From Chloroflexota bacterium (GTDB lineage: Bacteria > Chloroflexota > Anaerolineae > Anaerolineales > JBFLVL01): DNA of 64,000 nucleotides. The notes beneath the pieces are model-generated. The model made no database searches. It saw nothing but the letters and a program-made list of their open reading frames with translations, and was not told the DNA's origin. Location of the stretch: contig JBFLVL010000005.1 in the NCBI GenBank assembly GCA_040758495.1, forward strand, positions 35,682-99,681, in the 5' to 3' direction. The stretch's first letter is position 1. The number at the start of each line of letters is the position of its first letter. A program made the translations under genes and the position numbers. This document shows, one piece after another, positions 7,133-58,286 of the stretch.

Positions 7133-7159
7133 TGCCTTCTCCTAAAGTAAGCAATCACG

Positions 7160-8257
7160 TCATGTCAGCGTTTTCGAAGTTATGCGCCTTAAGGCGGCGT
7201 AAACCAGGTTCAATGTCTGCTTCCAATCTTCTAAACGGACTAGGGAAACAGGTGTGTGCAGGTACCTGCCAGGCACAGATATGGAGACACTTGGGATGCC
7301 GGCGCGTTGCCTTTGGATTGCACCAGCATCTGTGCCACCCCCGCCAGGTTGTCGGAATTGGTAGGGTATCCCTTCCTCCTCTGCAGTACGTACGAGGAGC
7401 TGGATCAAGCGTGGATCAGAGATGGTCCCCCCGTCAGCAATGTATATCGCCGGTCCTGCTCCCAGGCGGGTATTGTATCGGGTGTTTTCTTCTCCATCCC
7501 ATGACGGCAGATCAAAGGCAGGAGTACAGTCCAGCACAAAAGCCAAATCTGGGTCGAAGGTATAGGCAGCCACACGGGCACCACGCAATCCAATTTCTTC
7601 CTGAACCGTAAAAGCAGCCAGGAGGTCAATGTTTGTTGGGGCATGGGTAACCAGTTCGATCAGGGTTGCCACTCCAATCCGATCATCAAACGCTTTGCCG
7701 CACAGGTTTCGACCCAGACGGAAAAAGCGTGTGGCAAACGTAGCACGATCACCAACCTTGACCTTGGAGTCTTTCCCCAAACCGATATCAATCCGCAAGG
7801 ATTTTATCGAAATGACTTTGCTTCTTTCTTCGATTTCGGTCAGATGAACGGGCTTGACACCGATTACTCCGGGTATCTGCTCACTGCCAACTAGAACAGG
7901 TTTACCGACCAACTGTCGGGCATCTATTCTCCCTACAGTATCAAAATGGAAAATGCCCTCATTTTCCTTATGGGTGAGTAAAAATCCCACCTCATCCATG
8001 TGAGCAGCGACCATCACCCGTGGTCGGTCTTTTCCCTGGCCGCGGCATGTGACCAATACATTCCCAAGCGCATCAACAATCACATCATCGGCAGCACTCC
8101 TAACCTGTTCCAACACCACCTGACGTAACGCACCTTCATCTCCAGAAACGGCACATGCGTTGGATAAACGCTCTAACAAGCGAATTTGAGCCGCGGCTAT
8201 TCGCGGGGCACTGGATTTTTCCTGTGTCATGATCTTATCTCTCTGTTTATTTCGCAT
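7160..8257 (-). CDS. M42 family metallopeptidase (TET/FrvX-like aminopeptidase), paralog 2 of 3
   Basis: The ORF extends to 8263 (TTG). The ATG at 8257 has GAGGA 6 nt upstream. Motifs: AAHMDEVG, FDDRIG, QEEIGLRGA, VLDCT and GRYLHTPVS. Confidence 0.88.
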   Translation of the reverse strand: MRNKQRDKIMTQEKSSAPRIAAAQIRLLERLSNACAVSGDEGALRQVVLEQVRSAADDVIVDALGNVLVTCRGQGKDRPRVMVAAHMDEVGFLLTHKENEGIFHFDTVGRIDARQLVGKPVLVGSEQIPGVIGVKPVHLTEIEERSKVISIKSLRIDIGLGKDSKVKVGDRATFATRFFRLGRNLCGKAFDDRIGVATLIELVTHAPTNIDLLAAFTVQEEIGLRGARVAAYTFDPDLAFVLDCTPAFDLPSWDGEENTRYNTRLGAGPAIYIADGGTISDPRLIQLLVRTAEEEGIPYQFRQPGGGGTDAGAIQRQRAGIPSVSISVPGRYLHTPVSLVRLEDWKQTLNLVYAALRRITSKTLT

Positions 8258-8275
8258 TAGCAATCCTCGATTACA

Positions 8276-9331
8276 TTAATCCATGTTTACCTTATTCATG
8301 AAATCCGGTCCTAAACGAGCGATAAACTCGGCCAACAAACGCCCTGTACGCTGGATGTCCTTCATCATCACCATCTCAACAGGAGTGTGCATGTAACGCA
8401 AGGGTATACTCAGCAGCACCGTGGGGATACCCTCGGCAGTTACTTGTAGAGCTATGGCATCTGTACCTGAATGATGAGCGAATACCTCTACACTGTAGGG
8501 TATCTCCAGCTCTTCGGCCAAAGTTTTAAAAGCCTTGAATAAAGTCGGGTGGACATTGGGCCCCCAACCCAGGGTCAACCCTCCACCCAGCGGAAATGTG
8601 CGATGATCATCTGCTCCGGGACCCCGACCGTAGGTGACATCTACAACCACAGCCACATCCGGGCGTAACTGAAAGGCAGATGTGGCTGCTCCGCCTAAGG
8701 TCTCCTCTTCCTGTACAGTAGCGACCACCCAGACATCCCATTGGTGGACACGCTGGGTAAGTTCCTGGAGGCAATGGGTCAGAGCCACAATGGATACCCG
8801 GTTATCCAGCGAATGCCCAGCAATCACCTCTCCACTAAGCTCCAAAGGGGGCTGGGCAAAGGATACCAGGTCGCCAACTCGCACCAAACGTGCCAGGCGC
8901 TGTGCGGTGAGGCCTGTGTCAATCCACAAATATTCTATGGGCACATTACCGTTGTGAATCTCGGTCGGCAACAACCAATCGGGTGGCATGACAACCACCC
9001 CGGGTATATCCTGGCGGCCATGCACAGTAACCAGTTGACCGGGTAACACGCGGGCATCCACACCCCCCACCGATGTCAGGCGTAAAAATTCTTCCTCCAA
9101 ACCTTTGACCATCAAACCAATGGCGTCCATGTGGGCAGAAATCAATACGCTGGAACGCGGATCGGGTGCCTCACCACGCCGAAAACCGTGCAGGCTACCC
9201 AAGGGGCTGAGGGACAATTTCTCCACCAACGGTTTCCATTGGTTGGCTATTAAATCGCACACTGGACTCTCGTGACCAGATAACCCTGGTGCGGATATCA
9301 ACTCTTTCAAAAAAGGGGTGAAGTCTGTCAT
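8276..9331 (-). CDS. M42 family metallopeptidase (TET/FrvX-like aminopeptidase), paralog 1 of 3
   Basis: 351-aa ORF with motifs SAHMDAIG, SLDNRVS, QEEETLGGA, VVDVT and LRYMHTPVE. Confidence 0.88.
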   Translation of the reverse strand: MTDFTPFLKELISAPGLSGHESPVCDLIANQWKPLVEKLSLSPLGSLHGFRRGEAPDPRSSVLISAHMDAIGLMVKGLEEEFLRLTSVGGVDARVLPGQLVTVHGRQDIPGVVVMPPDWLLPTEIHNGNVPIEYLWIDTGLTAQRLARLVRVGDLVSFAQPPLELSGEVIAGHSLDNRVSIVALTHCLQELTQRVHQWDVWVVATVQEEETLGGAATSAFQLRPDVAVVVDVTYGRGPGADDHRTFPLGGGLTLGWGPNVHPTLFKAFKTLAEELEIPYSVEVFAHHSGTDAIALQVTAEGIPTVLLSIPLRYMHTPVEMVMMKDIQRTGRLLAEFIARLGPDFMNKVNMD

Positions 9332-12309: not shown

Positions 12310-12702
12310 TTAAGCGTTGTCCAGCAGCCTGCTATTTTGAGCGACTTGGCGCAGTACTGCAATCATGTCATCCGAGTCGAGGCACTTTGTCAACACCCTC
12401 TTTACTCCCACCTTTTCCAACTCCATCCGCAAAGCGGTATCAGCAACCGTGGTGAGCACAACAACGGCTGTCTCAGGTACTTGTTGGGTGATCTGCTGAA
12501 GGGTATACATCCCCAAACCATCACTCATCATTGGGTCAATCAACAACAGGTCAGGACGTTTATTCAATGTGCACTTGAGAGCCTGGGTATTATCACGCGC
12601 TTCCCCCACAATGATAAAATCAGGCTCCCTATGTAAACGGGTTACCAGTTGTCGGCGTACGTCTGAGAACTCATCAGCAATGATAACGCGTATTGCAGCC
12701 AT
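12310..12702 (-). CDS. Stand-alone response regulator receiver domain (CheY-like)
   Basis: ATG at 12702 (MAAIRVIIADEF...). The receiver hallmarks are present: the acidic pair ADE, a phospho-acceptor Asp in LLLIDPMM, VVLTT and LTK. There is no output domain. Confidence 0.8.
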   Translation of the reverse strand: MAAIRVIIADEFSDVRRQLVTRLHREPDFIIVGEARDNTQALKCTLNKRPDLLLIDPMMSDGLGMYTLQQITQQVPETAVVVLTTVADTALRMELEKVGVKRVLTKCLDSDDMIAVLRQVAQNSRLLDNA

Positions 12703-12933
12703 AAAAAATTTGCCCCAAAACAAAATAGCAAGCTCAGTGTAACAAAACTTATAAATAGCTTAAAGAGACAAATGTCCCAGGGCTGAAGGGACAAGTCTCA
12801 TGTTAGGTTATATCCAGATATGCCTGGGGTTAGGCCCTGTAGGCTTTCACAGTCCAATGATCACGCGTGACTGCCCCCAGAAGGGGTGTGAGCGGAGGGT
12901 CACAAAGTTCGCAGCTCAAGTGGGGATCATCCG

Positions 12934-14268
12934 TCACGGTTCAGGCGTGGATGGTGAGTCAATCGTGGTATATACGTCAGTGATCAGCAAGTCGTAATTG
13001 CCAGCGGCTTGGGCGGCTTTCATCTGCGCCTGGCGTGCCAAGTTGGTAGCATCTGCGAGAATGCGCAAGGCTTCTTCGGGATTGTGGAAACCCATACTGT
13101 TTTCAGCCGAGACAAAGTCCCAACGGAACTGTGCCTGCCAATGCAGGAAGCGCGCTTCCTCCAAAAGGTCTTGATTGACCTCGGGAAGTTGAGCGGCAGC
13201 TTCGATAGCTTTGATGGCATCAATGATGGCATTCTCAGCGGTGATCTTGATTGTATGCACCTGATCTTGAATGGTACAGACGCGTGCAACCACATAATTC
13301 ACGTCGGTATGGCACTGACCGCAGGCCTGTTCGGGGAATAACAATGGGCTTTTTACGTCATGGCTGGAATATTTCACCGCACCGTCGCGCAGGTAGGGCA
13401 TATGGCAATCCGCGCAGGCCACGCCGGCACTGAAGTGGGTGCTTTCAGCCGTGTAGAACTCGTATTCCGGGTGCTGAGCTTTCAACATAGAAGTCCCGGT
13501 ATCGGGGTAGGTCCAATCGCTAAACCCCAATTCCTCGTAGTAGCTGAGGATCGCCTCCACGCGTGTGCCATCCGCCCACGGGAAAGTAAGGTATTTGCCT
13601 TCACCCGCGAAGTAGTACTCGACATGACAATTCGCGCAGACCACTGTACGCATCTCCTGGCGAGTGAGAGTACGCCAGTCTATGCCCAGCTTCATGAGGG
13701 CTTCTTCCAGAGCCGGGTTAGTTACGATCAAGCGCATCGTTCCGACCTCATGGCAATTGGCACAGCCGATGGGCTGATCAATCTGTTGACCCAGTTCGCT
13801 GAAAGGCGTCTTATCGAACGCAGCCATGCCCATCTCGGTCCACAACTCGGGGTTGTTGGCAGACTTACACGAGTAGCAGGTGCCTGGGGTCTTCTCGTCA
13901 ATGCGTTTGGTCTCGTTTACGTCGGTCAGGCTGTTTAAATGACCTCTTTCCTCGTTGTAGTCCTTGCCAAAGCCATAGCCCGCAAACAAGATGACCTGAC
14001 GTGGGTCCTCGGTCAGGTGCGAAAATTTTTCTGATCCGCCATAGGTAGTGCGTGTATCATTTGTCAGGGTCTTCAGGAAGGAGGAATATTCATTAGGAAA
14101 GTTAATACCCCATCTGGACGAGTCGGGTTCCATTGGCGCGATGTCTACCAAGGGCTGAAATCCTCGTTCCGGAGCAGGTCGGCTCTGGATATAAAGCAGC
14201 GTGCCGACCAGCCCAGCGCCAAGCAAAACGATGATTCCTGTCAAGATCAGGTTGGTGGTTCTTTTCAT
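12934..14268 (-). CDS. nrfA: Cytochrome c nitrite reductase, pentaheme catalytic subunit (ammonia-forming)
   Basis: Diagnostic CxxCK heme motif (CYSCK) plus four CxxCH motifs (CANCH, CANCH, CADCH, CGQCH). The ATG at 14268 overlaps the nrfH stop (ATGA), with GGAGGAGGAA upstream. An N-terminal TM/signal helix is present. Confidence 0.93.
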   Translation of the reverse strand: MKRTTNLILTGIIVLLGAGLVGTLLYIQSRPAPERGFQPLVDIAPMEPDSSRWGINFPNEYSSFLKTLTNDTRTTYGGSEKFSHLTEDPRQVILFAGYGFGKDYNEERGHLNSLTDVNETKRIDEKTPGTCYSCKSANNPELWTEMGMAAFDKTPFSELGQQIDQPIGCANCHEVGTMRLIVTNPALEEALMKLGIDWRTLTRQEMRTVVCANCHVEYYFAGEGKYLTFPWADGTRVEAILSYYEELGFSDWTYPDTGTSMLKAQHPEYEFYTAESTHFSAGVACADCHMPYLRDGAVKYSSHDVKSPLLFPEQACGQCHTDVNYVVARVCTIQDQVHTIKITAENAIIDAIKAIEAAAQLPEVNQDLLEEARFLHWQAQFRWDFVSAENSMGFHNPEEALRILADATNLARQAQMKAAQAAGNYDLLITDVYTTIDSPSTPEP

Positions 14269-14741
14269 TTTTCCTCCTCCTTGTGCTGATAGGGTAACAA
14301 CGAGATGCCGCGCTCGCCATGGGCAGTTGAGCGATGACAGTCCCAACAGTAGGTGTCAAAGGGCATCAGACCACCCAGGATAATATCCACGGTGTCCTCA
14401 TGGCAACGAATACAATTATCCTGAACAACTTTGAGTGAGGATTCTTTAGCACGGATGGCATCAGGAATATTTCCAAGAAGAAAAGCTGAGACATGATGGT
14501 AACCTGATAGCGCCTTCACGTAGTACTTAGGGATGAGCGCATGGGGTGTGTGACAGTCCGCGCAGACAGTCCCTCCGTGATGAGTGGCGTGAAACCAGCC
14601 CTCGTAGACCGCATCCATCACATGGCAGTTGTTACACGTGGTGGGATCATTTCCTAGGTAGGCGGTGAAATCGGTAACGTACATCCCCACCCCGATGACT
14701 GCCAACAGGGTTAAAATTCCGATCATTAACGGAAGCTTCAT
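14265..14741 (-). CDS. nrfH: NrfH, membrane-anchored tetraheme cytochrome c quinol dehydrogenase (NapC/NirT family)
   Basis: 158 aa with an N-terminal TM helix and four CxxCH motifs (CNNCH, CADCH, CIRCH, CWDCH). It lies immediately upstream of, and is coupled to, nrfA. Confidence 0.92.
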   Translation of the reverse strand: MKLPLMIGILTLLAVIGVGMYVTDFTAYLGNDPTTCNNCHVMDAVYEGWFHATHHGGTVCADCHTPHALIPKYYVKALSGYHHVSAFLLGNIPDAIRAKESSLKVVQDNCIRCHEDTVDIILGGLMPFDTYCWDCHRSTAHGERGISLLPYQHKEEEK

Positions 14742-14785
14742 ATAACAGACACTTTATAAAAAATATTCAGGTGAGTAAATACTCG

Positions 14786-16144
14786 TTATTGATGATGTAA
14801 GGGAAAGCGCAGGGTCACGCAAGTGCCTCCATCGGGTCGAGGAGATATATCCAGGTCTCCTCCCAAACCCTCTGCGCGCAACTGCATGTTGATTAATCCC
14901 TGACCACCAACCCGCATCTGTTCACCCCTCATCCCAATGCCATCATCAGATATGGATAGCACCAGGATATGATCTTGCTGCGCTACCTTTATAAACACGT
15001 TGCATGCGCGGGCGTGTTTGCGCACATTGGTTAACGCCTCTTGAGCTATATGCAACACCTCTACCGTATGTTCAGGATTTAGTACCTCCGATTGCAAACC
15101 ATCCAGCTCCAAATGCGTACTCAGAAAGCTGTTCGCTCGCAAATCGCGTTCCAGCTCAATCAGCCCACAGCGCAAGTCATTACCCTGAAAACGCTCGGGG
15201 CGTAAATTCAGTATGTAGTTTCGTATGTCACGGATGACCTCATTTAACCCCTGCAAAGCCTGAGCAATACGCTCCTTTTCCTCAACCGCCCTGTAAGGGA
15301 GGTTGTGCCTCGTATCGTCCAGCATCAAACCGATGGCATACAATGATTGGATCACGCCATCGTGCAGATCCATACCAAATCGTTCGCGTTCCTGAAAAAT
15401 GGCTAATTGCTGAGTTTGTCGGTAAAGCTGAGCGTTTTCAATGGCGATAGAGGCTTGCGTGGCGAACATCTCCAGTACTTCTTGATCTCTCTCGGTAAAC
15501 TCACAATACTCACGGCCATCACGGCTGTTCCTCGGCAACTTATTCGCCAGATATAAATCACCGATCACCTTACCTTTAGAATGTACGGGAACTCCCAATA
15601 GCGAATATATGGGAGGATGGTTAGGGGGCAGACCCACGGCCCGCGGGTCGTCTGCTATGTTCGAAACGCGGATGGGTTTACCCTCCCGGATCATGACACC
15701 CAACAACCCCCGACCTGATGGGGGTTTACCGACGCGTGCGCGCTCTTCCGGAGTAATCCCGGAGGTGATAAACTGCTCCAGGTAATCCCCCGTCTCACCT
15801 AGCATCCCCAACGCCCCATACTTAGCACCGATCAAGCCTCGAGCCAGTTCAGCAACTTTTTGCAGGACAACACTCAATTCCAGTTCGGTCGTCAACGTCA
15901 GGGCTGCCTGATGCAGAGCCGTTAGCTGCTCGGAGCGTTGTCCTATCTCAGCCTCACGTTTCTGTGCCAAACGAAAAATAACGGCGGAAAATCCCGCCGA
16001 TATCAAAACCACTATCATCACTGCAATAACTTCTAGGCTCAAATTAAGTTGCCCCCCAAAAAGCCAATCCCGCAACCCGACAATGGCAATTAAAAAGCTA
16101 AGCGGTATCATCACCGTTAGCAATTTCAACGCTCCAGAGCTCAT
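14786..16144 (-). CDS. Sensor histidine kinase with GAF domain (HisKA_3/NarL-partner type)
   Basis: 452 aa with two N-terminal TM helices and a GAF-like segment. The HisKA_3 H-box is FGMDLHDGVIQSLYAIG. ATPase boxes are ALTNVRKHA, SDDGIG and GQGLINM. Confidence 0.88.
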   Translation of the reverse strand: MSSGALKLLTVMIPLSFLIAIVGLRDWLFGGQLNLSLEVIAVMIVVLISAGFSAVIFRLAQKREAEIGQRSEQLTALHQAALTLTTELELSVVLQKVAELARGLIGAKYGALGMLGETGDYLEQFITSGITPEERARVGKPPSGRGLLGVMIREGKPIRVSNIADDPRAVGLPPNHPPIYSLLGVPVHSKGKVIGDLYLANKLPRNSRDGREYCEFTERDQEVLEMFATQASIAIENAQLYRQTQQLAIFQERERFGMDLHDGVIQSLYAIGLMLDDTRHNLPYRAVEEKERIAQALQGLNEVIRDIRNYILNLRPERFQGNDLRCGLIELERDLRANSFLSTHLELDGLQSEVLNPEHTVEVLHIAQEALTNVRKHARACNVFIKVAQQDHILVLSISDDGIGMRGEQMRVGGQGLINMQLRAEGLGGDLDISPRPDGGTCVTLRFPLHHQ

Positions 16145-16160
16145 CCAGCACCCTTCACCG

Positions 16161-16169
16161 TGCTATAAT
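16161..16169 (+). promoter_or_regulatory. Possible extended -10 promoter element for the NarL-type regulator
   Basis: TGCTATAAT lies in the 68-bp divergent region between the kinase and regulator genes. No good -35 hexamer was found. Confidence 0.3.
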
Positions 16170-16212
16170 CTATTACCTTGATTATATCATCTCCTCTTAG
16201 AGGGTGAACCAT

Positions 16213-16869
16213 ATGCTGCGAATTCTACTCGTGGACGACCATGAGGTTGTACGCTTAGGACTGAAGGCCTTACTCTCACGACATCCGCACTTCGAGGTCG
16301 TCGCCGAAGCCAGTGACGCCAACGAGGCCATCCAAAAAGTTCACAAGTACAATCCCGACGTGGTAGTAATGGACATTCGCCTGCCCGGAAAAAGCGGCGT
16401 TGACGCCACGCGCGAGATTGTATCACAACGACCCAACACCAAAGTGATTATCCTCACCTCCTACGCTGAGGACGACATGCTCTTTGAAGCCATTGCAGCC
16501 GGCGCTTCCGGTTACGTGTTGAAACAAATCGGGAGTGACGAGCTCATCAAAGCGCTGGAGACAATAGGCAAAGGGGAAGCCTTGCTCGACCCAGCCCTGA
16601 CACAACAGGTCTTCGAGCGGGTGCGCGAGGCCGCCCGCAAAGCCCACGATGAAGCTTTCGCTGCCCTGACCAATCAGGAACTGCGTATCATGTCCCTGAT
16701 ATCCAAAGGGAAGACCAACCGTGAGATCGCTGAGGCTGTTTATCTCAGCGAAAAAACCGTACGCAATTACGTGAGCTCCATTTTGAGCAAATTAGGACTT
16801 TCCTCTCGAGCCGAAGCGGCAGCATACGCGGTTCGCTACCGTATTCAGGACCACCTTCCCCCCCATTAA
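16213..16869 (+). CDS. NarL/FixJ family response regulator (receiver + LuxR-type HTH)
   Basis: ATG at 16213 ([17 protein letters not shown]); the ORF is open from a GTG at 16204. Receiver residues are [14 protein letters not shown] and YVLK. The HTH reads [44 protein letters not shown]. Confidence 0.92.
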
Positions 16870-17067
16870 CCCAACTCCTAATTTCGGCGTGCTTCTAACC
16901 CCTGGCGGAGTCTGCTCTTTGGCAAACCCCGGGGATCTGCCATTTACCTGTTCAAACGCCAGAAATTTACCTTGCGACAATACTCACACTTCGATCGGGA
17001 TAGCAGGAGGTCAAACAACGGTAGCAAGCACAAATTTCCGTTTATAACCCAGCAAGATTATTGAATG

Positions 17068-17111
17068 AAAAAAGAGGTGTCCCCGACCACCTTTCAGGTC
17101 GCGGACACCTC
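17068..17111 (-). terminator. Intrinsic terminator of the pyruvate:ferredoxin oxidoreductase gene
   Basis: Minus strand reads GAGGTGTCCGCGACC-TGAAAGGT-GGTCGGGGACACCTC (15-bp stem, one mismatch) followed by TTTTTT. It lies about 50 nt after the stop at 17164. Confidence 0.8.
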
Positions 17112-17163
17112 CGATAAACTCCTCACTGACTCTTTGTTAGCTCAGAAATCAGACAGCAGAATC

Positions 17164-20100
17164 TCAATCCTCTTTACTGCTGAACGACATATTCGCCCAC
17201 ATTTCATACATCCGCCAGCGCACATTGACATCTTCCTGGGCTCTCTCCAGCAGCTCTTCAGCAACATCTGGCCTGCTCAAGGCCAGCATGGTGTACCGCT
17301 CTTCATTGTAGGCATAGTTTTCGAGTGGACTAGAAGGCGGCTTGGAATCCAACTGCATTGGGTTCTTACCCTGGGCTATGAGATCGGGGTTGAAGCGGAA
17401 CAGTGGCCAATAACCAGCCAGCACGGCGCGTTTTTGCTGCTCCAGTCCATACTTGAGATCCAATCCATGCATGATACAGTGGCTGTAAGCAATGATCAAA
17501 GATGGCCCATCATACGCTTCTGCTTCGAGGAAAGCCTTGACGGTTTGGGCATCGTTACCGCCCATGGCCACGCGGGCAACATACACATTGCCGTAGGTCA
17601 TAGCTATCATCGCCAGGTCTTTCTTGGGCAGGGGTTTACCACCGGCCGCGAATTTCGCCACTGCAGCTCGCGGGGTTGCCTTGGACATCTGCCCGCCGGT
17701 GTTGGAGTAGACCTCGGTATCTAAAACAAGAACATTGACGTTGCGCCCGGAAGCCAGTACATGATCCAGACCTCCGTAGCCAATATCGTACGCCCAGCCG
17801 TCGCCTCCAACAATCCACACGCTCTTCTTTACCAGGGCATCTGCCACACTGAGTAGGTTGCGCGCTTCAGGAGTGTCTACACCCTTCAGTCGCTCTTTTA
17901 GAACCGTAACGCGCTCTCGCTGGTTAAAGATACCCTCTTCGGTAGACTGGTCAGCGTTGAGCAAGCCTTCGACCAGTTCCTTTCCAATTTGGTCTGATAA
18001 CCGAGACACCAGCTCGCGGGCATACTCGTTCTGCTTATCGAGTGTCAGGCGCATACCCAAACCAAACTCAGCGTTATCTTCAAACAGGGAGTTCGACCAG
18101 GCGGGCCCGCGCCCTTCAGCGTTGAAGGTCCACGGTGTAGCCGGTAGGTTTCCACCGTAAATGGAAGAGCAGCCCGTGGCGTTAGCCACAATGGCTCGAT
18201 CACCGAACAACTGGGTCATCAACTTTACATAGGGTGTTTCACCGCAGCCTGCACAGGCACCCGAAAATTCAAACAACGGCTCAAGCAATTGGACATCTTT
18301 TACCTGCTTCAAGTTAAGTTCCTGTCGCCCAACATCGGGTAGCTGCAGGAAGAAGTTCCAGTTATCAATCTCCTGCTCACGCAAGGGCAGCAGCGAGCGC
18401 ATGTTGATCGCCTTCAGGCTGGCATCTTCCTTGTTTTTTGCAGGACAAGCTTCCACACACACACTACAGCCCGTACAATCTTCGGGCGCTACCTGCAACG
18501 TGTAGACAAAATCTTCAAATTCCCGCCAGCGAGCAGGGGCTGAGAGAAACCTCGAGGGGGCATCTTTCAATAACCTGGGGTCGTACACCTTTGCCCGAAT
18601 CACCGCATGGGGACAGACCAGCACGCACTTGCCACACTGGATGCACACCGCCGGATCCCATACCGGTATCTCTAAGGCGATATTGCGCTTTTCCCACTGC
18701 GTGGTTCCACTGGGATAGGTACCATCTTCAGGCAGGATACTTACCGGGAGATCATCACCTTCTCCAGCAATCATCTTACCCGTTACTTCCCTGACGAACT
18801 CTGGAGCCTCAACTGGCACTGGCGAACGGAATTCCAGCGTGCTCGTGACCTTATTGGGAATCTTCACTTCATGCAGGTTGGCCAAAGCATGATCCACGGC
18901 CGCGTAATTTTGCTGGACAATCTCTTCTCCCCTTCTCCCGTAGGTCTTTTTAATGGCCTCCTTGATTTGGGCGATTGCCTCGTCCCTGGGAAGGACGCCG
19001 CTGATGGCAAAAAAGCAAGCCTGCATAACAGTGTTGATGCGACCTCCCAGACCAGCTTCTTGTGCCACTTCATAAGCGTTGATTACGAAAAAGCGCATCT
19101 TTTTATCTATCATTTGTTGCTGGATTGGGCGAGGGAGGTAATCCCAGACCTCATCCCGACCATAGGGGCTGTTGAGCAAAAAGGTGGCTCCAGGTTCAGC
19201 CAGTTTCAACACATCCATGCGTTCTAAGAAATGGAACTGGTGACAGGCTACGAAGTTCGCCTTGTTAACCAGATAGGTGGAATGAATCGGCTTGGGACCA
19301 AAGCGCAAGTGGGAGACCGTTTGGGCTCCAGACTTCCGCGAGTCGTACACAAAGTAGCCCTGGGCGTGGTTCTCAGTTTCTTCGCCGATAATCTTGATGG
19401 AGTTCTTGTTCGCCCCCACGGTACCATCCGCCCCTAAACCATAGAACACTGCCCGAACTGTCTTCGGATCTTCAATAGAAAATTGAGGGTCATAATCCAA
19501 GCTGGTGTGGGTGACGTCGTCATTTATACCAATGGTAAAGTGTTTCCTGCGTTTTTTCCTGGCCATCTCATCGAAGATGGCTTTGACCATGCCAGGGGTA
19601 AACTCTTTCGAGGAAAGTCCATAGCGCCCACCAATAACGGCTGGTCGGGTATCAAACGGGGCTTTCCCGCTCTCCATGATTTCCTTTATCGCCGCGACAA
19701 CATCCAGATAGAGAGGCTCTCCTATGCTGCCAGGTTCCTTGGTGCGATCCAGAGCCGCGATCACCTTTACGGTGGATGGCAAGGCTTGAACGAAATGCTC
19801 AACCGAGAAGGGGCGGAAGAGGCGCACTTTAATGACCCCCACCTTCTCACCTTTTGAGGTGAGGTAATCTACTACTTCGTGCACAGTCTCGGCACCTGAG
19901 CCCATGATCACCATCACCCGCTCTGCATCCGGGGCACCAACATAATCAAACAGGCGATATTGGCGACCAAGTACTTCGGCAAAGTGATCCATGGTCTCCT
20001 GGACGATTTCCGGGCAGGCCAAATAATAGGGATTGACCGTCTCACGTGCCTGGAAGTAGACATCGGGGTTCTGGGCAGTGCCGCGGATAAAGGGGCGGTC

Positions 20101-37621: not shown

Positions 37622-38602
37622 TCATTTCCAATCCGCCCGGGCTGTTTGGCGACCGTGGAGGTACTTATCCACGGATATGGCAGCCACCACCCCGTCGGCT
37701 GCGGCAATCACCGCCTGTTTGATGTGTTCACAGACGATATCACCTACAGCAAACACGCCGGGGACGCTAGTCTTCATTTCACGATCTACAACCAGACAGC
37801 CCTCTTGCGTGGTTTCGAGTTGACCCATCAGGTAATCCGTTATCGGTCGGTTACCCTGGGTGTAGATAAACACGCCGTTCACTTCTAGCGTTTCTTCCTC
37901 CCCACCTCGCGGTTGGATGCGTACACCCTTTACGGTTTCATCACCTACGATTTCCCTCACGCGTGAGCCCAGGTATATAACTACCTTCGGATGGTTGGTC
38001 ACTTCTTCAACCAGGTGCGGACGAGCCTTTAACTCCGGTGTGGGGACGACCAGGAAGACCTGTTCGGCAAACTTGGTCAGAAAAATGGTTTCCTCCAGCG
38101 CTTCGTCGTTGTTCCCTGCTACAGCAACCTTCTGGTCACGGAAGAAAGCACCATCACAAGTAGCACAATAACTCACTCCCCTTCCCAAATAAACCTCTTC
38201 GCCGGGCAGCGTGCTGGTGCGCCCCATTGATCCGGTAGCTAAGATGACGGCTCGAGCGTAAAACGGTTTGCTCCCCGCCATCACCATCTTGGGATCAGAG
38301 GAAAAATCCACACCAACAACCTTGTCGGTCAAATACTCAGCCCCGAATGACTCCGCTTGCTGGCGGATAATCTCTACCAATTCTGCACCGCTGACCGGAC
38401 CGGGTACACCGGGATAATTGTTAATCTTGCCCGTTATGCCCAGCGCACCAGCAGTCAGACCCTTATCAATGACCAGGGTTCGCAGGTCTGCGCGGGCGGT
38501 ATAAATCGCCGCAGAGGAACCCGCTGGCCCCCCACCGATAATAATTACATCATAAACATCCGCTGGTTCTGCCCCCAAACCAGTTAATCGTAAACCTTCC
38601 AT
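37622..38602 (-). CDS. trxB: Thioredoxin-disulfide reductase homologue lacking canonical NADPH-binding motifs
   Basis: 326 aa with the FAD motif IIIGGGPAGSSAAIY and a redox-active CATC (VSYCATCDGAFF). The positions of GGGNSA/HRRxxxR read VAVAGNNDEALEE and FLVVPTPELKA. GAGGTG lies upstream of the ATG, and the gene starts 28 nt after the PDO stop. Confidence 0.85.
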   Translation of the reverse strand: MEGLRLTGLGAEPADVYDVIIIGGGPAGSSAAIYTARADLRTLVIDKGLTAGALGITGKINNYPGVPGPVSGAELVEIIRQQAESFGAEYLTDKVVGVDFSSDPKMVMAGSKPFYARAVILATGSMGRTSTLPGEEVYLGRGVSYCATCDGAFFRDQKVAVAGNNDEALEETIFLTKFAEQVFLVVPTPELKARPHLVEEVTNHPKVVIYLGSRVREIVGDETVKGVRIQPRGGEEETLEVNGVFIYTQGNRPITDYLMGQLETTQEGCLVVDREMKTSVPGVFAVGDIVCEHIKQAVIAAADGVVAAISVDKYLHGRQTARADWK

Positions 38603-38630: not shown

Positions 38631-39299
38631 TCATCCAGCCCCTGCTTTCAATGCTTCCATCACTTTCGCTAGCACCACCTGCTCGGGAACCGCACCCTCA
38701 ATAAAAAAGCCTTCGTTGATGACCGTTCGAGGGACACCCATTACGTGGTACTTATTGGACAGATGCGGAAATTCAATCGCTTCGACCATGTCGGCGCGAA
38801 TGTAGGCGCTTTCCATGGCCATTTGATGCACCAGACGAACTGCCGGCGGGCAGTACGGTCAGGTAGGGGTAATGAAAACTTGAAAATGTACCGGCTTGTC
38901 TATCTTGGCCAGTTGGTCTTTCGTCGCCGGCGAGAGACCCGAATCTCCTAACGAAACCATAAAAATATCCTCGATCAACGAAGTGAACTCGTACCCCGAG
39001 GGAATGCCAAAGAAGCGTATGCCGTAATCTACCGGCCTATCCCCATCCGCGGTAATAACCACAGCCGGGATTTTGTCAATCCCGTAACGCTTGGAAACCC
39101 CCTTCCCCGGTTCAAACATGGTCACTTCGGCTGCCAGTTTTTCCGAAAGGCTGGCCAGTTCCTCAATCAACATGCGCGTTTCATGGCAATACTGGCATTC
39201 TCTCTCCTGGGTGAACATCAACAGCTTAACCGGACGCTGTAACTTTTCAGCAAACAGCCGCTGTAATTGGATCTGATCACTTTCAGAAATCAAAGACAT
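38631..39299 (-). CDS. Two-domain protein disulfide oxidoreductase (PDO/glutaredoxin-like) with an in-frame TGA at 38859-38861. Candidate selenoprotein (UPYC); alternatively a nonsense-disrupted pseudogene.
   Basis: ORFs 38859-39344 and 38631-38831 share a frame and are separated by a single TGA. The ATG at 39299 has GGAGGA upstream. The N-unit carries CQYC; the C-unit reads FITPT-TGA-PYCPPAVRLVHQMA...DMVEAIEFP...YHVMGVPRTVIN. Read through, the protein is 222 aa, a PDO-like size. Confidence 0.6.
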
Positions 39300-39344
39300 G
39301 GCAATCCTCCTCTTCTGACGATGGTTGACATACAAGCCTTCCAC

Positions 39345-39373
39345 ATTTTACGCGTTTTTATGACTGGCCTCAA
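39345..39373 (-). promoter_or_regulatory. Putative promoter of the PDO-trxB-like operon
   Basis: Minus strand reads TTGAGG (39368-39373), a 17-nt spacer, then TAAAAT (39345-39350). Confidence 0.4.
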
Positions 39374-39397: not shown

Positions 39398-39441
39398 TTG
39401 ACACCGCAAAGGAGAGCGAATAAAATTATCAATAACAATTC
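39398..39441 (+). promoter_or_regulatory. Putative promoter of the Fur-family gene with an overlapping AT-rich Fur/PerR-box-like sequence
   Basis: TTGACA (39398-39403), a 17-nt spacer, then TAAAAT (39421-39426). The segment AAATTATCAATAACAATTC (39423-39441) is made of NATWAT-like hexamers and overlaps or follows the -10. Confidence 0.4.
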
Positions 39442-39463: not shown

Positions 39464-39913
39464 ATGCCAGAAACAACCGAACGTCAGACCCGCTTAAAAC
39501 AAGTGGTGGCCAAATTACGTGAACAGGGTCACCGGATGACACCGCAGCGCATGGCGGTGCTGGAAATCCTGATTGACAGTACACAACACCCCGGCGCCGA
39601 ACAGGTCTACGAGCAAGTGCGCAAGGACTTTCCCATGACCAGCCTGGCGACGATATATAAGACATTGATTGTGCTCAAAGAAGTGGGTGAAATTTCAGAA
39701 ATTGTGCTCGCCGATGGTAGCAACCGTTACGATGGGAACATCCCCCACCCTCACCCACACCTGATCTGTAACCACTGTCACCGTATCATTGACGTTGACC
39801 TCAACGACTTGAGCACCTTACCCCAGGTGGTGGCTCAACAGACAGGCTATCAAATAGTCAGTCATCGGCTGGATTTTTTTGGGATCTGCCCACGATGTCA
39901 GGAGGAGGGGTGA
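39464..39913 (+). CDS. Fur family transcriptional regulator (Fur/PerR-like)
   Basis: 149 aa with a winged-helix N-terminus (RMTPQRMAVLEIL). The metal sites are HPHPHLICNHCHRIIDV and CPRC. Confidence 0.88.
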   Translation: MPETTERQTRLKQVVAKLREQGHRMTPQRMAVLEILIDSTQHPGAEQVYEQVRKDFPMTSLATIYKTLIVLKEVGEISEIVLADGSNRYDGNIPHPHPHLICNHCHRIIDVDLNDLSTLPQVVAQQTGYQIVSHRLDFFGICPRCQEEG

Positions 39914-40093
39914 TGGCGCACCTTGCCAGGGTGGAGAATCACTTCCGGGGAAACGAAGCAGGCAGAAAAGTGAAAGCGAGCCTCGGAGCCCTTTCTGGAC
40001 TGCTTCTAATCCATTGACACACAACTCACCCTGAGAAATATCAACCAATTCCCATTTTTAGCAGTATCAAAAAACCCAACAAAGGAGAAACAC

Positions 40094-40609
40094 ATGTTCA
40101 ACGAAAAAATCCAAAAAGAAACAAACGACCAGATTCAACGCGAGATCGAATCCGCCCATATTTACCTATCAATGGCTGCCTATTTTGACTCGACCACCCT
40201 GCCCGGATTTGCTCAATGGATGAAAGCGCAGTTCCAGGAAGAGTTATTCCATGCCTTCAAGTTTTACGACTTCGTCAATGACCGTGGTGGACGGGTTGCA
40301 CTTCAACCCATCGGTCAGCCACCCGTTGAGTTCACGTCTCCCCTGGATGCCTTCGAGAAAGCGCTGGCCCACGAACAAAAAATCACCAGCCATATTAACC
40401 ATCTGTACGCCCTCGCCATTCAGGAAAAAGACTACGCCACGCAGCAGTTCTTGCAGTGGTTCATAGATGAGCAGGTCGAAGAGGAAAAAAGTGTTGGCGA
40501 GGTGGTTCACACACTGAAGATGATCGGAGACAACGCTCACGCCCTGCTCATGCTGGATAGAGAGATGGGGCAGCGGCAGCCTCCAGTCGTAACCGGAGGT
40601 GGAGAATAG
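40094..40609 (+). CDS. Ferritin (non-heme, Ftn-type)
   Basis: 171 aa with a ferroxidase-centre pattern (QREIESAHIYLSMAAY, QEELFHAFKFYDF, EQ...H and FIDEQVEEE). AAGGAG lies upstream of the ATG. Confidence 0.88.
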   Translation: MFNEKIQKETNDQIQREIESAHIYLSMAAYFDSTTLPGFAQWMKAQFQEELFHAFKFYDFVNDRGGRVALQPIGQPPVEFTSPLDAFEKALAHEQKITSHINHLYALAIQEKDYATQQFLQWFIDEQVEEEKSVGEVVHTLKMIGDNAHALLMLDREMGQRQPPVVTGGGE

Positions 40610-40680
40610 GCAGCAGCTTACCTGCCAATCAGGTCTGGTACCTTCAGCCCTTTATCTAACTTTTTCATAAAGAGGTAGTT

Positions 40681-42012
40681 ATGGATCCGGTAACACTTGC
40701 TCGTATCCAATTTGGCCTGACAGCCGCTTTTCACTTTCTCTTCCCGCCAGTATCCATTGGTCTGGCTTGGATCATCGTCTACATGGGCTGGCGCGCTCTT
40801 CGCACAAATGAAGAAATGTACGATCAGATGACCCGTTTCTGGGTCAAAGTATTGGCCCTGATCTTCGTGGTGGGCGTAGCCAGCGGGATAACCCTGGAAT
40901 TCCAGTTCGGTACCAACTGGTCTACGTACTCCCGTTTCGTTGGCGATATCTTCGGGTCACCTCTGGCCGCCGAAGGAATTTTTGCCTTCTTCCTGGAGTC
41001 AGTCTTCATGGGTATCCTGGTCTTTGGTCACAAGCGCGTGTCCAGGAAGCTTTATTGGTTTTCTACGCTGATGGTAGCTCTGGGCTCCACCCTTTCGGCT
41101 TTCTGGATTATTGTGGCCAACTCCTGGCAGCAAACCCCAGTCGCCTACCAGATCGTTGGAGAGGGCGCTTTCCGTCGCGCAGAACTTACCAATTTCTGGG
41201 CAGCGGTGTTCAACCCTTCGACCTTACCCCGCTATCTTCACACCATCATAGCTTCTATTCTTACTGGTGGGTTCTTCGTCGCGGGTTCATCCGCTTGGTA
41301 CTTGATAAAAGGACGCCACGAGGAATTCGCCCGTCGCTCGTTACGTATCGGTCTGGTTGTGGTAGCCATCTTCTCCCTGCTGATCGTGGTGGCGGGTCAC
41401 TTTCACTCTGTACAGGTAGCCGAAACCCAGCCTGCCAAAATGGCCGCTTACGAGGCGCTGTTTCAGACCCAACAGGGCGCCCCCATGGTCATCTGGGGCT
41501 TCCCAGATGTTGAGAACCAGTCCCTGCGCTTTGGCATCCAAATTCCCAAACTGCTCAGCTTTCTGATTGACTTCGACCCCAACAGCACAGTAATAGGGTT
41601 GGATCAATTTCCACGCCAGGAGTGGCCGCCGATCGGTCTGTCTTTTTATCCTTACCATATCATGGTCTTACTCGGCGGCTGGTTTATCCTGATTTCCTGG
41701 CTGGGCATCTTCCTGGGAGAACGACGTTTCGCAAACCAACTCTTCTTAAAAGCGCTGCTTTTCTCCCTTCCCCTGCCCTGGGTAGCCATGGAGTTGGGTT
41801 GGATGGCCACCGAGTTCGGTCGCCAGCCGTGGGTGGTGTATCAGCTGCTGAAGACCAAGGACGCTGTATCCGTAGTGGTGCCTGCCTGGCAGATTCTGCT
41901 GACGATCATATTGTTCGCCCTGCTCTACACTTTGCTGCTGGCCCTGTTCATCTTCCTTCTCAGGCGGATGTTCCTAAAAGGGCCTCAAGAACCCAAGGAG
42001 GTGACAACATGA
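40681..42012 (+). CDS. cydA: Cytochrome bd-type quinol oxidase subunit I
   Basis: 443 aa with the N-terminus MDPVTLARIQFGLTAAFHFLFPPVSIGL typical of CydA. It is the short Q-loop form. Confidence 0.93.
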   Translation: MDPVTLARIQFGLTAAFHFLFPPVSIGLAWIIVYMGWRALRTNEEMYDQMTRFWVKVLALIFVVGVASGITLEFQFGTNWSTYSRFVGDIFGSPLAAEGIFAFFLESVFMGILVFGHKRVSRKLYWFSTLMVALGSTLSAFWIIVANSWQQTPVAYQIVGEGAFRRAELTNFWAAVFNPSTLPRYLHTIIASILTGGFFVAGSSAWYLIKGRHEEFARRSLRIGLVVVAIFSLLIVVAGHFHSVQVAETQPAKMAAYEALFQTQQGAPMVIWGFPDVENQSLRFGIQIPKLLSFLIDFDPNSTVIGLDQFPRQEWPPIGLSFYPYHIMVLLGGWFILISWLGIFLGERRFANQLFLKALLFSLPLPWVAMELGWMATEFGRQPWVVYQLLKTKDAVSVVVPAWQILLTIILFALLYTLLLALFIFLLRRMFLKGPQEPKEVTT

Positions 42013-43037
42013 GCCTGGCAACCCTGCAAATTATCTGGTATGTGCTGATCGGCATTCTGATCAGTGGATACGCCATTTTGGATGGCTTCGATCTGGGAGT
42101 CGGTGTGCTCTCCCCTTTCGTGGCCCGAAATGAGCAGGAACGACGTCTGTTGCTCAAGGCCATCGGTCCATTTTGGGATGGCAACGAGGTGTGGTTGCTT
42201 ACTGCGGGCGCGGCACTTTTTGCCGCTTTTCCTCATGTGTATGCTACCGTTTTCAGTGGATTTTACCTGGCCCTGATGTTGCTTCTCTTCGCCCTCATCC
42301 TGCGAGCTGTCTCCTTTGAGTTCCGTCACCAGATGGGGGTGGAAAAGTGGCGCCGTATCTGGGATTGGGTCTTCTTTTTCGGCAGCCTTATCCCTGCTAT
42401 GTTAACCGGCGTAGCCCTGGGGAACGCTGTACGGGGGGTGCCCTTGAACGCCCAAATGGAGTTCACTGGGAACTTTTTCACCCTGCTGAACCCCTTTTCT
42501 CTGCTGGTAGGTCTTACGGGTCTGGCCATGTTCCTCACTCATGGGGCCATATTCCTGATGGTAAAGACCAACGGTGCGGTTGCTGAACGGGCAAAGCGCT
42601 GGGCGTTAAACGGATGGACAGCACTCCTCATCCTGTTTTTATTGACTTCTATCGTGGGTTACATCTCTGCCCAACATCTTTTCGCTAACTACATACAAAC
42701 CCCCATTGCCTGGGCAGTGCCCTTTCTGGTAGTTATTTTCCTGGCAGCCACGCGCAACAGGACTGAGAAGGAAAATCCTGGGCGGGCATTTACCTTCTCC
42801 GCTCTCACCATTACCGGGTTAATAGGCGTCCTGGGAATTGCCGGTTTTCCTTTTCTCGTTTATGCTCTCAACACCATGGAACATGGATTATCCATTTATA
42901 AAGCCTCCGCCTCACACACAACCCTGATGACCATGCTTATCATTGCCCTGATTGGTATGCCCATCGTGATAGCTTATAGCGCCTATGTGTATTACATACT
43001 CCGGGGCAAAGTCCAAGTCGAGGATGAGGGCTACTGA
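42009..43037 (+). CDS. cydB: Cytochrome bd-type quinol oxidase subunit II
   Basis: The ATG at 42009 overlaps the cydA stop (ATGA). MSLATLQIIWYVLIGILISGYAILDGFDLGVG is a typical CydB N-terminus. The ORF track's upstream extension (41622-42008) lies inside cydA. Confidence 0.92.
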   Translation: MSLATLQIIWYVLIGILISGYAILDGFDLGVGVLSPFVARNEQERRLLLKAIGPFWDGNEVWLLTAGAALFAAFPHVYATVFSGFYLALMLLLFALILRAVSFEFRHQMGVEKWRRIWDWVFFFGSLIPAMLTGVALGNAVRGVPLNAQMEFTGNFFTLLNPFSLLVGLTGLAMFLTHGAIFLMVKTNGAVAERAKRWALNGWTALLILFLLTSIVGYISAQHLFANYIQTPIAWAVPFLVVIFLAATRNRTEKENPGRAFTFSALTITGLIGVLGIAGFPFLVYALNTMEHGLSIYKASASHTTLMTMLIIALIGMPIVIAYSAYVYYILRGKVQVEDEGY

Positions 43038-43098
43038 GCGGCAATAAGAAGGGTCCGAACGGTCTTCAACATCCACAACAGGTTGACCAGGAAGAGAT

Positions 43099-43398
43099 AT
43101 GAAATCCTATAAAGGTTTAGTTGTTCTGGTGGTAGCGATAACTGTATTATTGAGCGCCTGTGGCAGCCCCTCGCCCCAACCACCAGCCTCACCCCAACCC
43201 TCATCCCCTACAGATGGAAGTACACTCTTGCAGGAACGTTGCACTGAGTGTCATAGCCTGGCTCGTGTAGAACAGGCGCAAAAAAACCTTGATGAGTGGG
43301 AAAGGGTAGTTAATAGCATGATTAACAAAGGGGCACAGTTGAACGAGGACGAAAAAGCCCTGCTTATCGAATACCTGGCTGAAACCTACGTACCCTAA
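43099..43398 (+). CDS. Small monoheme c-type cytochrome lipoprotein
   Basis: 99 aa with a signal peptide plus lipobox (LLSACGSP), a Pro/Ser linker and a single CxxCH (CTECH). These are followed by LDEWERVVNSMINKGAQLNEDEKALLIEYLAETY, which resembles heme-binding domains of the quinohemoprotein amine dehydrogenase alpha type. Confidence 0.65.
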   Translation: MKSYKGLVVLVVAITVLLSACGSPSPQPPASPQPSSPTDGSTLLQERCTECHSLARVEQAQKNLDEWERVVNSMINKGAQLNEDEKALLIEYLAETYVP

Positions 43399-57323: not shown

Positions 57324-57626
57324 CTAAATCTGAAAACTGCCACGCGCACGGATGATTTTATATGAGAAGTCCTCCACATAATCATGTAGTCGTCTGACTA
57401 AACTATCCCACTCGTTTGAAGCCAGGGTTTGCTGTAAAGTCGTAAGGTTGGGTGAGAGCATTGCGGCCAGAATCTGGGGATAATCACCATACATGGTGAA
57501 CCATGCATCGCTCGGTTTCAGACCAATCTTCTGAACTTCAGGGATAAACTCCCGCACGACAAACTCGAAGTATTCCTGTTCTCGTCCTGGGAGTATATCC
57601 CAGGTCATGAGCATCTTTACAACCAT
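57324..57626 (-). CDS. Hypothetical 100-aa protein
   Basis: ATG preceded by AGGAG. It is on the same strand as, and tightly packed with, its flanking genes. I recognised no motif. Confidence 0.45.
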   Translation of the reverse strand: MVVKMLMTWDILPGREQEYFEFVVREFIPEVQKIGLKPSDAWFTMYGDYPQILAAMLSPNLTTLQQTLASNEWDSLVRRLHDYVEDFSYKIIRARGSFQI

Positions 57627-57638
57627 AACACTGCTCCT

Positions 57639-58286
57639 TCAGGAACCTTTATACTCCAACACCACTACGTCCGTTTCTTGAGGGACATTACCAGCCTTTA
57701 CTTCCAATTCAGGTTTTGGTTTTACCTTACCCAAACCCATCTCTTTGAGGAACCTATCAAGGGGCAACAATTTCGTCATCTTCGATTCGGGAGTTGCATA
57801 GTGCATTGGGATGACGATACCTGGCTCGATCAGACTCACGACCTCGGCTGCTTTCGCGGCAATCAATCCTCCCCCACCCCCAACTGGCACTAAAGCCACG
57901 TCCACAGTGCCCAAAGCTTCAATTTCCGCCTGACCCGGAACCCGGCGCAAATTGCCTAAATGCGCAACAGTAACCCCTTCAATATCAAAGACATACAGGG
58001 TGTTGGGCTGTTCATCCTTAGAACGTGCATGACTGTTCGTCCGTACGGCGGTGATGAAAACCCCACCGATTTCGTATTCACCAGGCCCGGTGATGACATG
58101 GGGATTTCCTCTCACCCCCTTTACATAGTTATGACCTGGCGCATCGTGGCTGATTGTGACGATATCTCCAGCGAGCTTGAGGGGGAAGTAACCCACGACT
58201 TCCGAATCGTAGGGGTCCGTAACCACTGTGGCAAAAGAGCGTTTCGTTATACGAAAACAAGAATGACCGTACCAGGTAATTTTCAT
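57639..58286 (-). CDS. MBL-fold metallo-hydrolase (UPF0173-like)
   Basis: 215 aa with the family-typical N-terminus MKITWYGHSCFRI, plus ISHDAPGH. Confidence 0.75.
   Translation of the reverse strand: MKITWYGHSCFRITKRSFATVVTDPYDSEVVGYFPLKLAGDIVTISHDAPGHNYVKGVRGNPHVITGPGEYEIGGVFITAVRTNSHARSKDEQPNTLYVFDIEGVTVAHLGNLRRVPGQAEIEALGTVDVALVPVGGGGGLIAAKAAEVVSLIEPGIVIPMHYATPESKMTKLLPLDRFLKEMGLGKVKPKPELEVKAGNVPQETDVVVLEYKGS

Follow-up and report, generated by a model that had tools for sequence, protein, structure and literature searches.

The window considered here is a 64,000-nucleotide (nt) stretch of a contig from a Chloroflexota bacterium (JBFLVL010000005.1), and our subject is a gene on its minus strand for a protein disulfide oxidoreductase (PDO) that carries an in-frame TGA codon, which we read as probably specifying selenocysteine (Sec). 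The gene appears as two minus-strand open reading frames (ORFs), 38859–39344 and 38631–38831, that the ORF list and the sequence place in one frame, with this TGA as the sole intervening stop. Translation from 39299 to 38631 gives 222 residues and a final stop, reading ...FTQERE-CQYC-HETR... around the N-terminal redox motif and, in the C-terminal unit, ...HFQVFITPT, followed by the stop codon and then by PYCPPAVRLVHQMAMES.... The ORF piece after the TGA has a GTG start that lies within the helix following the motif, and has neither a CxxC motif nor a ribosome-binding site. TGA terminates 18 of the 45 window ORFs, among them nrfH, cydA, mutY and the PDO gene itself, and the genetic code is therefore standard, not reassigned. 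A preliminary description of this locus had pointed to two same-frame ORFs parted by one TGA codon, to a 222-residue, two-unit read-through product, to genuine TGA stops in nrfH, cydA and mutY, and to a downstream piece that alone has no redox motif or ribosome-binding site, all of which our translation and ORF counts confirm. The coordinates of the gene and of the features around it are collected in Table 1.

Table 1. Features of the PDO locus and its surroundings, in window coordinates.
Feature	Position	Strand	Details
PDO read-through gene	38631..39299	-	222 residues, two thioredoxin-fold units; proposed Sec is residue 147
In-frame UGA, proposed Sec codon	38859..38861	-	T at 38861, A at 38859; residue 147; first position of U-P-Y-C
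N-terminal redox motif C-Q-Y-C	39186..39197	-	Residues 35–38; from the translation
C-terminal redox motif U-P-Y-C	38850..38861	-	TGA CCG TAC TGC; TPT-U-PYCP at residues 144–151
Shine-Dalgarno GGAGG	39306..39310	-	6 nt upstream of the ATG at 39299; read from the sequence
Promoter-like site of the PDO gene	39345..39373	-	TTGAGG-17-TAAAAT; consensus scan, pattern match only
Promoter-like site of perR	39398..39426	+	Back to back with the PDO site; consensus scan, pattern match only
Low-molecular-weight thioredoxin reductase (TrxR)	37622..38602	-	Starts 28 nt after the PDO stop; TIGR01292, 338.9 bits
PerR/Fur-family regulator	39464..39913	+	Divergent from the PDO gene; NF052545 PerR, 141 bits
Hairpin ACUGCC-CGCC-GGCAGU (preliminary description)	38839..38854	-	Within the minimum-free-energy fold; overlaps and competes with the 38829–38848 candidate
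Best candidate selenocysteine insertion sequence (SECIS)	38829..38848	-	7-bp stem, 5 Watson-Crick and 2 G-U pairs; bulged U at 38835; loop AGUUC at 38841–38837

Family Membership and Redox Motifs

When the UGA is replaced by cysteine (Cys), the NCBIfam model TIGR02187.2 ("PDO_seleno_TRX"; cut-off 185) gives the protein 275.8 bits. Its residues 1–217 align to residues 1–225 of PDB entries 1J08 and 1A8L (E = 7e-57 and 6e-55, respectively), and Pfam Thioredoxin_3 matches two stretches of the protein, both results being comparisons of sequence only. Judged by these matches, the window gene is a PDO-type protein of the TIGR02187 family, and the score above cut-off and the full-length match to 1J08 and 1A8L bear out the PDO or glutaredoxin-like identity that the preliminary description had given it. 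The TPTCPYCP stretch of the Pyrococcus PDO (1J08, 1A8L) is aligned opposite TPT-UGA-PYCP, which, together with the alignment of homologues presented below, upholds the earlier placement of the TGA exactly at the first (attacking) Cys of the C-terminal CPYC motif. The N-terminal site reads CQYC, CEYC or CQFC in all near homologues.

The window protein shares two thioredoxin-fold units, an N-terminal CxxC motif and the C-terminal TPTCPYCP-type site with the PDOs of Pyrococcus furiosus and P. horikoshii (1A8L, 1J08), Aquifex aeolicus (2AYT, 2YWM) and Sulfolobus solfataricus, but these have Cys at the attacking position, come from hyperthermophile hosts, and contain small insertions (226 vs 222 residues). 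The N-terminal domain of AhpF likewise has the same double thioredoxin fold, such that the window PDO and the TrxR encoded next to it resemble an unfused equivalent of that enzyme. AhpF models match the PDO only through this shared N-terminal domain, however, with 78 bits against a cut-off of 503 for TIGR03140 and 110 against 688 for TIGR03143. With scores this far under the cut-offs, two separate genes and no ahpC nearby, we rejected an identity as AhpF, the redox motif of which is CHNC, as opposed to the CPYC-type motif of the window PDO.

Cysteine and TGA at the Same Codon of Homologues

Among the 119 nearest full-length homologues (60–71% identity), the named sources of which are Caldilineae, Anaerolineae or Chloroflexota, the UGA column holds Cys in every case (119/119), and the flanking residues are invariant. 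As gene callers divide Sec genes into two ORFs, Sec forms are missed by full-length protein searches, and we therefore searched DNA directly. Scanning one-genome-per-species contigs with the pattern ACN CCN ACN TGA CCN TAY TGY CC gave 120 listed matches, 117 of which are true PDO genes with 70–110 conserved codons after the TGA, so that at least 117 species genomes carry TPT-TGA-PYCP. The TGA-type lineages among the matches listed include many Anaerolineae, other Chloroflexota, Methylomirabilota, Acidobacteriota, Ignavibacteria, Sulfobacillus and Alicyclobacillus. When metagenomes were scanned with TGH at the codon, the first 120 matches comprised 42 TGA, 40 TGC and 38 TGT codons, all of them in real PDOs. 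The alignment of orthologues at the UGA column, which the preliminary description had proposed as a check, thus returns both Cys and TGA, in many lineages, with Sec forms, among the matches listed, accounting for 23–35% of family members and, within the local clade, for no less than ~4%.

The same split is visible at the protein level. A search with the N-terminal 146 residues returned 27 relatives of 145–153 residues, all ending in ...TPT, among 119 other matches; among the 119 nearest N-domain homologues, 26 end where the TGA codon follows TPT. This count leaves out P0158 (locus L248), which was dropped as a near Sec relative because its contig stops one base past the TPT codon. We note that at this locus (Caldilineaceae metagenome-assembled genome, contig JAGRCW010000550.1) the assembly is interrupted precisely at the Cys/Sec codon, and strains differing in TGA or TGY at this codon might be the reason. 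When the C-terminal 75 residues served as the query, dozens of 59–70-residue fragments starting ...(A)VRLAH were retrieved, and these are the other halves of Sec genes. In public records, these C-terminal halves (P0182–P0301) are labeled "predicted DsbA family dithiol-disulfide isomerase" or "hypothetical protein", which is a systematic misannotation of Sec-type PDO genes.

The nearest TGA-type relative is L241 (P0121, assembly GCA_024449935.1; 68% amino acid identity), which is the sister of the window gene by neighbor joining, inside a clade of Cys forms. Its DNA reads TGA CCG CAT TGC CCG CCG GCA GTT CGC, after which the contig ends, and the window reads TGA CCG TAC TGC CCG CCG GCA GTT CGT; after the TGA, the two thus use the same codon at 6 of the 7 residues they share, compared to 46% over the N-domain (binomial p ~0.04 by rough arithmetic). 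The loci L249 (P0136) and L250 (P0191) are further Sec forms with C-terminal parts resembling that of the window, the C-terminal part of L249 being 75% identical.

Conservation continues past the UGA. The C-terminal part of the window protein is 75–76% identical to its relatives, compared to 61–68% for the N-terminal part. Of the 47 columns with a conservation of 90% or higher across 257 homologues, the window keeps 46, including 23 of the 24 that follow the UGA, and the region beyond this codon has therefore not decayed.

Hairpins Downstream of the UGA

Hairpin positions are counted here from the T of the TGA, which is position 0. In most Sec forms, positions 14–19 pair with 25/26–31 in a 6-bp stem closing a loop of 5–6 nt, usually CGUGN(N), in which G21-U22 is unpaired; the stem of this family element starts 11 nt, and its loop 17 nt, after the UGA. 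A second class of Sec forms, in which Ala-Ala replaces Ala-Val, has its loop ~22 nt after the UGA. Taking as the family criterion a hairpin of at least 5 bp, with GU early in the loop, the loop 16–26 nt after the UGA and a ΔG of −5 kcal mol–1 or better, such a hairpin is present in 86% of the Sec forms (n = 153), compared to 18% of the Cys forms (n = 78). A perfect 6-bp stem in the Ala-Val context separates the two more sharply, being found in 76 of 109 Sec forms (70%) and in none of 48 Cys forms. Shuffling synonymous codons according to the codon usage of each locus gives a mean z of −1.56 for Sec forms vs −0.45 for Cys forms. One stem pair is compensatory (G-C in 20, A-U in 7 and C-G in 2 of 29 sequences), and joins the middle base of the codon for variable residue +5 to the last base of the Leu codon; we note that these 29 sequences were chosen for the 6-nt-loop register, such that their 100% pairing is by construction. 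A covariance model (R1) built from the same 29 Sec forms, which represent the commonest class, scores independent Sec forms at 36–54 bits and separates the 6-nt-loop class well.

The family element resembles the SECIS of Escherichia coli fdhF, which has a defined spacing from the UGA and requires GU in the loop: it begins 11 nt downstream of the UGA with a short stem rich in G+C, and its loop contains GU. Hairpins in this region are not confined to Sec forms. In the Cys relatives L192, L247 and L242, the 25 nt after the Cys codon either retain 4–5 of the 6 pairs that define the SECIS register or fold into different stable hairpins (−7.6 to −11.1 kcal mol–1), and the covariance model of the Sec forms gives 30.5 bits to the Cys-type L192. 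It seems either that the coding sequence for P-[RQP]-A-V-x-L-A is predisposed to form a SECIS, or that the hairpins of Cys forms are SECIS remnants.

In the window itself, the preliminary description had singled out the GC-rich hairpin at 38839–38854 as lying where a SECIS would be expected. This hairpin exists, and is kept in the sister L241, but with its loop a mere 10 nt downstream of the UGA it is off the family position, and it needs the Ala codon GCA, used in 6 of 112 Sec forms; we therefore rejected it as the family element. The 86-nt region around it folds no better than shuffled sequences (z = −0.92). A ribosome with the UGA in its A site should, furthermore, enclose the 5′ arm of this hairpin. 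Folding only the region that is free outside such a ribosome gives a second hairpin, at 38829–38848, with a predicted energy of −6.8 kcal mol–1, its stem ~11 nt and its loop 17 nt after the UGA. It pairs C13-G32, G14-U31, C15-G30, C16-G29, G17-U28, G18-C27 and, past the bulged U26, C19-G25. Its loop lies at the family loop position and retains G21-U22. The same AGUUC loop occurs in other Sec forms, such as L084 and L092, and the Sec form L250 has a similar hairpin that also bulges a U on the 3′ side (−7.0 kcal mol–1). Compared to the fdhF element, the window version has two G-U pairs, a 3′-side bulged U and a stronger overlapping competitor, and it has no Rfam counterpart: scanning the window at the gathering threshold, and positions 38700–38950 at E up to 10, gave nothing of the SECIS type, the hits to U7 and GA-cis being due to chance.

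Genomic Setting, Proposed Decoding and Significance

The product of the TrxR gene directly downstream of the PDO gene probably serves as reductant for the U-x-x-C site. The PDO of Sulfolobus is reduced by thioredoxin reductase with NADPH and in turn regenerates Bcp peroxiredoxins, its C-terminal site carrying the thiol-transferase activity (PMC7465337). Having TrxR directly after the PDO gene makes the window an exception among Sec forms. Beside the PDO operon, on the plus strand (39464–43398), lies a cluster of oxidative-stress or micro-aerobic character that encodes PerR, a non-haem ferritin, the cytochrome bd oxidase (cydA and cydB), and a small c-type cytochrome resembling SorB. A role of the PDO in oxidative stress would fit its perR, ferritin and cydAB neighbors. 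No PerR-box-like inverted repeat was found in the intergenic regions searched.

Further away, nrfH (14265–14741) and nrfA (12934–14346) lie within 12310–16869, with genes for a histidine kinase (NarQ/NarX-like) and for response regulators of the NarL type on their flanks, and three tandem M42-family (lysyl/glutamyl) aminopeptidase paralogues occupy 6140–9331 on the minus strand. At 57324–58286 on the minus strand, an MBL-fold hydrolase ORF (57639–58286) ends in TGA and is followed four codons on, in the same frame, by a 100-codon ORF (57324–57626) without a family match; these are probably two genes. In another Anaerolineales genome (CP070811.1, locus L243), an MTTB-family (trimethylamine methyltransferase-like) gene at 17059–18516 lies ~7 kb from a Sec-type PDO gene.

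Taking all of this into account, we put the probability that the UGA at 38859–38861 encodes Sec, making this gene a real selenoprotein gene, at roughly 0.87. The Sec/Cys pairs found in many lineages, the intact and conserved C-terminal part, and the codons shared with the nearest TGA relative all support the candidate UPYC selenoprotein put forward in the preliminary description.

A substantial number of observations nevertheless pull in the other direction, and several of them favor the foremost alternative, namely that a Cys-type PDO gene has recently suffered a one-step TGC/TGT to TGA nonsense mutation, or that the TGA is a consensus or assembly error, with no Sec involved. The window gene is placed within a mostly Cys clade, and its syntenic PDO-TrxR orthologues (L247, L185 and L192, with TrxR ~70% identical) are all Cys forms. 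TrxR lies directly downstream of the PDO gene in only 1 of 110 Sec loci (plus a partial match at L104), compared to 9 of 43 Cys loci (loci L001–L120 and L121–L240, with the Cys count covering loci with enough sequence). The neighbor-joining tree has no bootstrap support and close distances, which weakens the sister grouping with L241. The sole departure from the conserved columns, A157V, lies after the UGA; explaining it as an adaptation of RNA pairing was rejected, since GCG would pair better than GUG. Within the 64-kb window, an NCBIfam scan of about 50 ORFs found no selA, selB or selD, ARAGORN found no tRNA-Sec (selC) there or in the retrieved homologue loci, and a scan for TGA-split ORF pairs and for extensions past TGA stops found no convincing second selenoprotein.

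The hairpin adds to these reservations. Its energy compares to a median of −9.5 kcal mol–1 for Sec forms, placing it at the 12th percentile of Sec forms and equaled by 24% of Cys forms, and it is no better than the hairpins of Cys orthologues such as L192, L247 and L242. Its synonymous-shuffle p is 0.17, and it forms 5 of the 6 fixed-register pairs, a class that comprises 9% of Sec forms vs 19% of Cys forms. R1, which describes the 6-nt-loop class, gives the window with its 5-nt loop 16.0 bits (E = 3.2), under the Cys forms L192, L142 and L154. The SECIS search that the preliminary description had suggested therefore gave a mixed answer, with a GU-loop hairpin in the family register on the one hand, and the lack of an Rfam match and an R1 score within the Cys range on the other. 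As such, the 38829–38848 hairpin is a weak candidate, compatible with a SECIS, and does not separate the window from Cys orthologues, so that the SECIS argument of the preliminary description is neutral rather than supporting. According to reviews, some true bacterial selenoprotein genes do not match the consensus SECIS model (PMC9312934).

Despite these points, we consider a recent lesion or error unlikely. A chance stop would have to strike the very codon at which roughly a quarter to a third of family members carry TGA, and our own rough estimate for a random lesion at this very codon is ~1e-4. The nearest TGA relative, L241, has the same TGA and nearly the same following codons, and there is no second lesion in the gene, with 23 of the 24 conserved columns after the stop intact, such that any mutation must be very recent.

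True termination at the UGA, with a functional 146-residue N-unit (CQYC only) and the downstream 66–75 codons as a leftover or separate fragment, is in our view very improbable. The N-unit does have a CxxC motif of its own, and gene callers split the gene in just this way in many assemblies, but such splitting is the usual annotation artifact of selenoproteins; the downstream piece, with no ribosome-binding site or redox motif, is conserved as well as the N-part or better, and the main activity of characterized PDOs resides at the C-terminal site (PMC7465337). Least probable of all is read-through without Sec, in which a near-cognate tRNA would insert Trp or Cys, maybe aided by a hairpin and with a low yield of full-length protein: termination is weak at a UGA that precedes a C, and a stable hairpin starts 4 nt after this UGA, but such read-through fails to explain TGA at the same codon in hundreds of homologues that also bear a SECIS-type hairpin, and a Trp in place of the attacking residue would inactivate the site.

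If the UGA does encode Sec, decoding can be modeled on the standard bacterial Sec pathway. A ribosome reaching the UGA would melt the 5′ arm of the strong 38854–38839 hairpin, upon which the sequence just outside the ribosome could fold as the 38848–38829 stem-loop, presenting its GU-loop ~17 nt after the UGA. SelB-GTP carrying Sec-tRNA(Sec) would then bind this loop and deliver Sec at residue 147. In the finished enzyme, the selenolate of U147-x-x-C150 would attack substrate disulfides, and the resulting selenenylsulfide with Cys150 would be re-reduced by the NADPH-dependent TrxR encoded downstream. The PDO-TrxR pair would probably feed peroxiredoxin-type or disulfide-repair reactions under PerR control.

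Selenium-containing PDOs are already known. TIGR02187 proteins with UxxC are a listed selenoprotein family, "predicted with high confidence" (PMC13188914, PMC9312934; also PMC1794560), attributed to Kryukov and Gladyshev (2004), with Carboxydothermus hydrogenoformans and Symbiobacterium thermophilum as the organisms in which it was originally detected (PMC1794560, PMC9312934, PMC13188914). The present NCBIfam name of the model agrees with this. The window gene scores above the family profile cut-off and has its UxxC at the same place in the C-terminal thioredoxin fold, but differs from the known Sec-type family in being Chloroflexota-like, in its TrxR operon beside perR (rare for Sec forms), and in a hairpin weaker than the family norm. 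We regard it as an ordinary new member of this known family, in which the UGA very probably encodes Sec. The mildly new aspects are the frequency of Sec forms in our scans, the operon context of the window gene, and a minimal SECIS candidate inside a mostly Cys clade, none of which would surprise selenoprotein specialists.

For annotation, our results mean that ORFs 38859–39344 and 38631–38831 should become one selenoprotein gene, and that many assemblies similarly split a Sec-form PDO into a 145-residue "glutaredoxin-like" protein and a 60–70-residue "DsbA-like" or hypothetical protein. For the family, they mean that the Sec form is far commoner in our scans than the original two-genome description suggested, accounting for about a third of the metagenome motif matches listed and occurring, among the matches listed, in many Chloroflexota, Methylomirabilota, Acidobacteriota and Bacillota. 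As it combines a PDO-TrxR-PerR setting typical of Cys forms with a weak SECIS candidate, the window copy could also serve the study of Sec/Cys switching. Here, we tentatively raise the possibility, which we regard as doubtful but worth stating, that the window gene and L241 represent a young Cys-to-Sec switch in a PerR-linked, otherwise Cys PDO-TrxR lineage, using a minimal bulged hairpin latent in the P-x-A-V-x-L-A coding sequence, in keeping with the 4–5 of 6 SECIS-register stem pairs that Cys orthologues retain. If true, such a switch would be a natural intermediate in the recruitment of a SECIS from a coding hairpin, and would pair a low-molecular-weight bacterial TrxR with a selenenylsulfide substrate.

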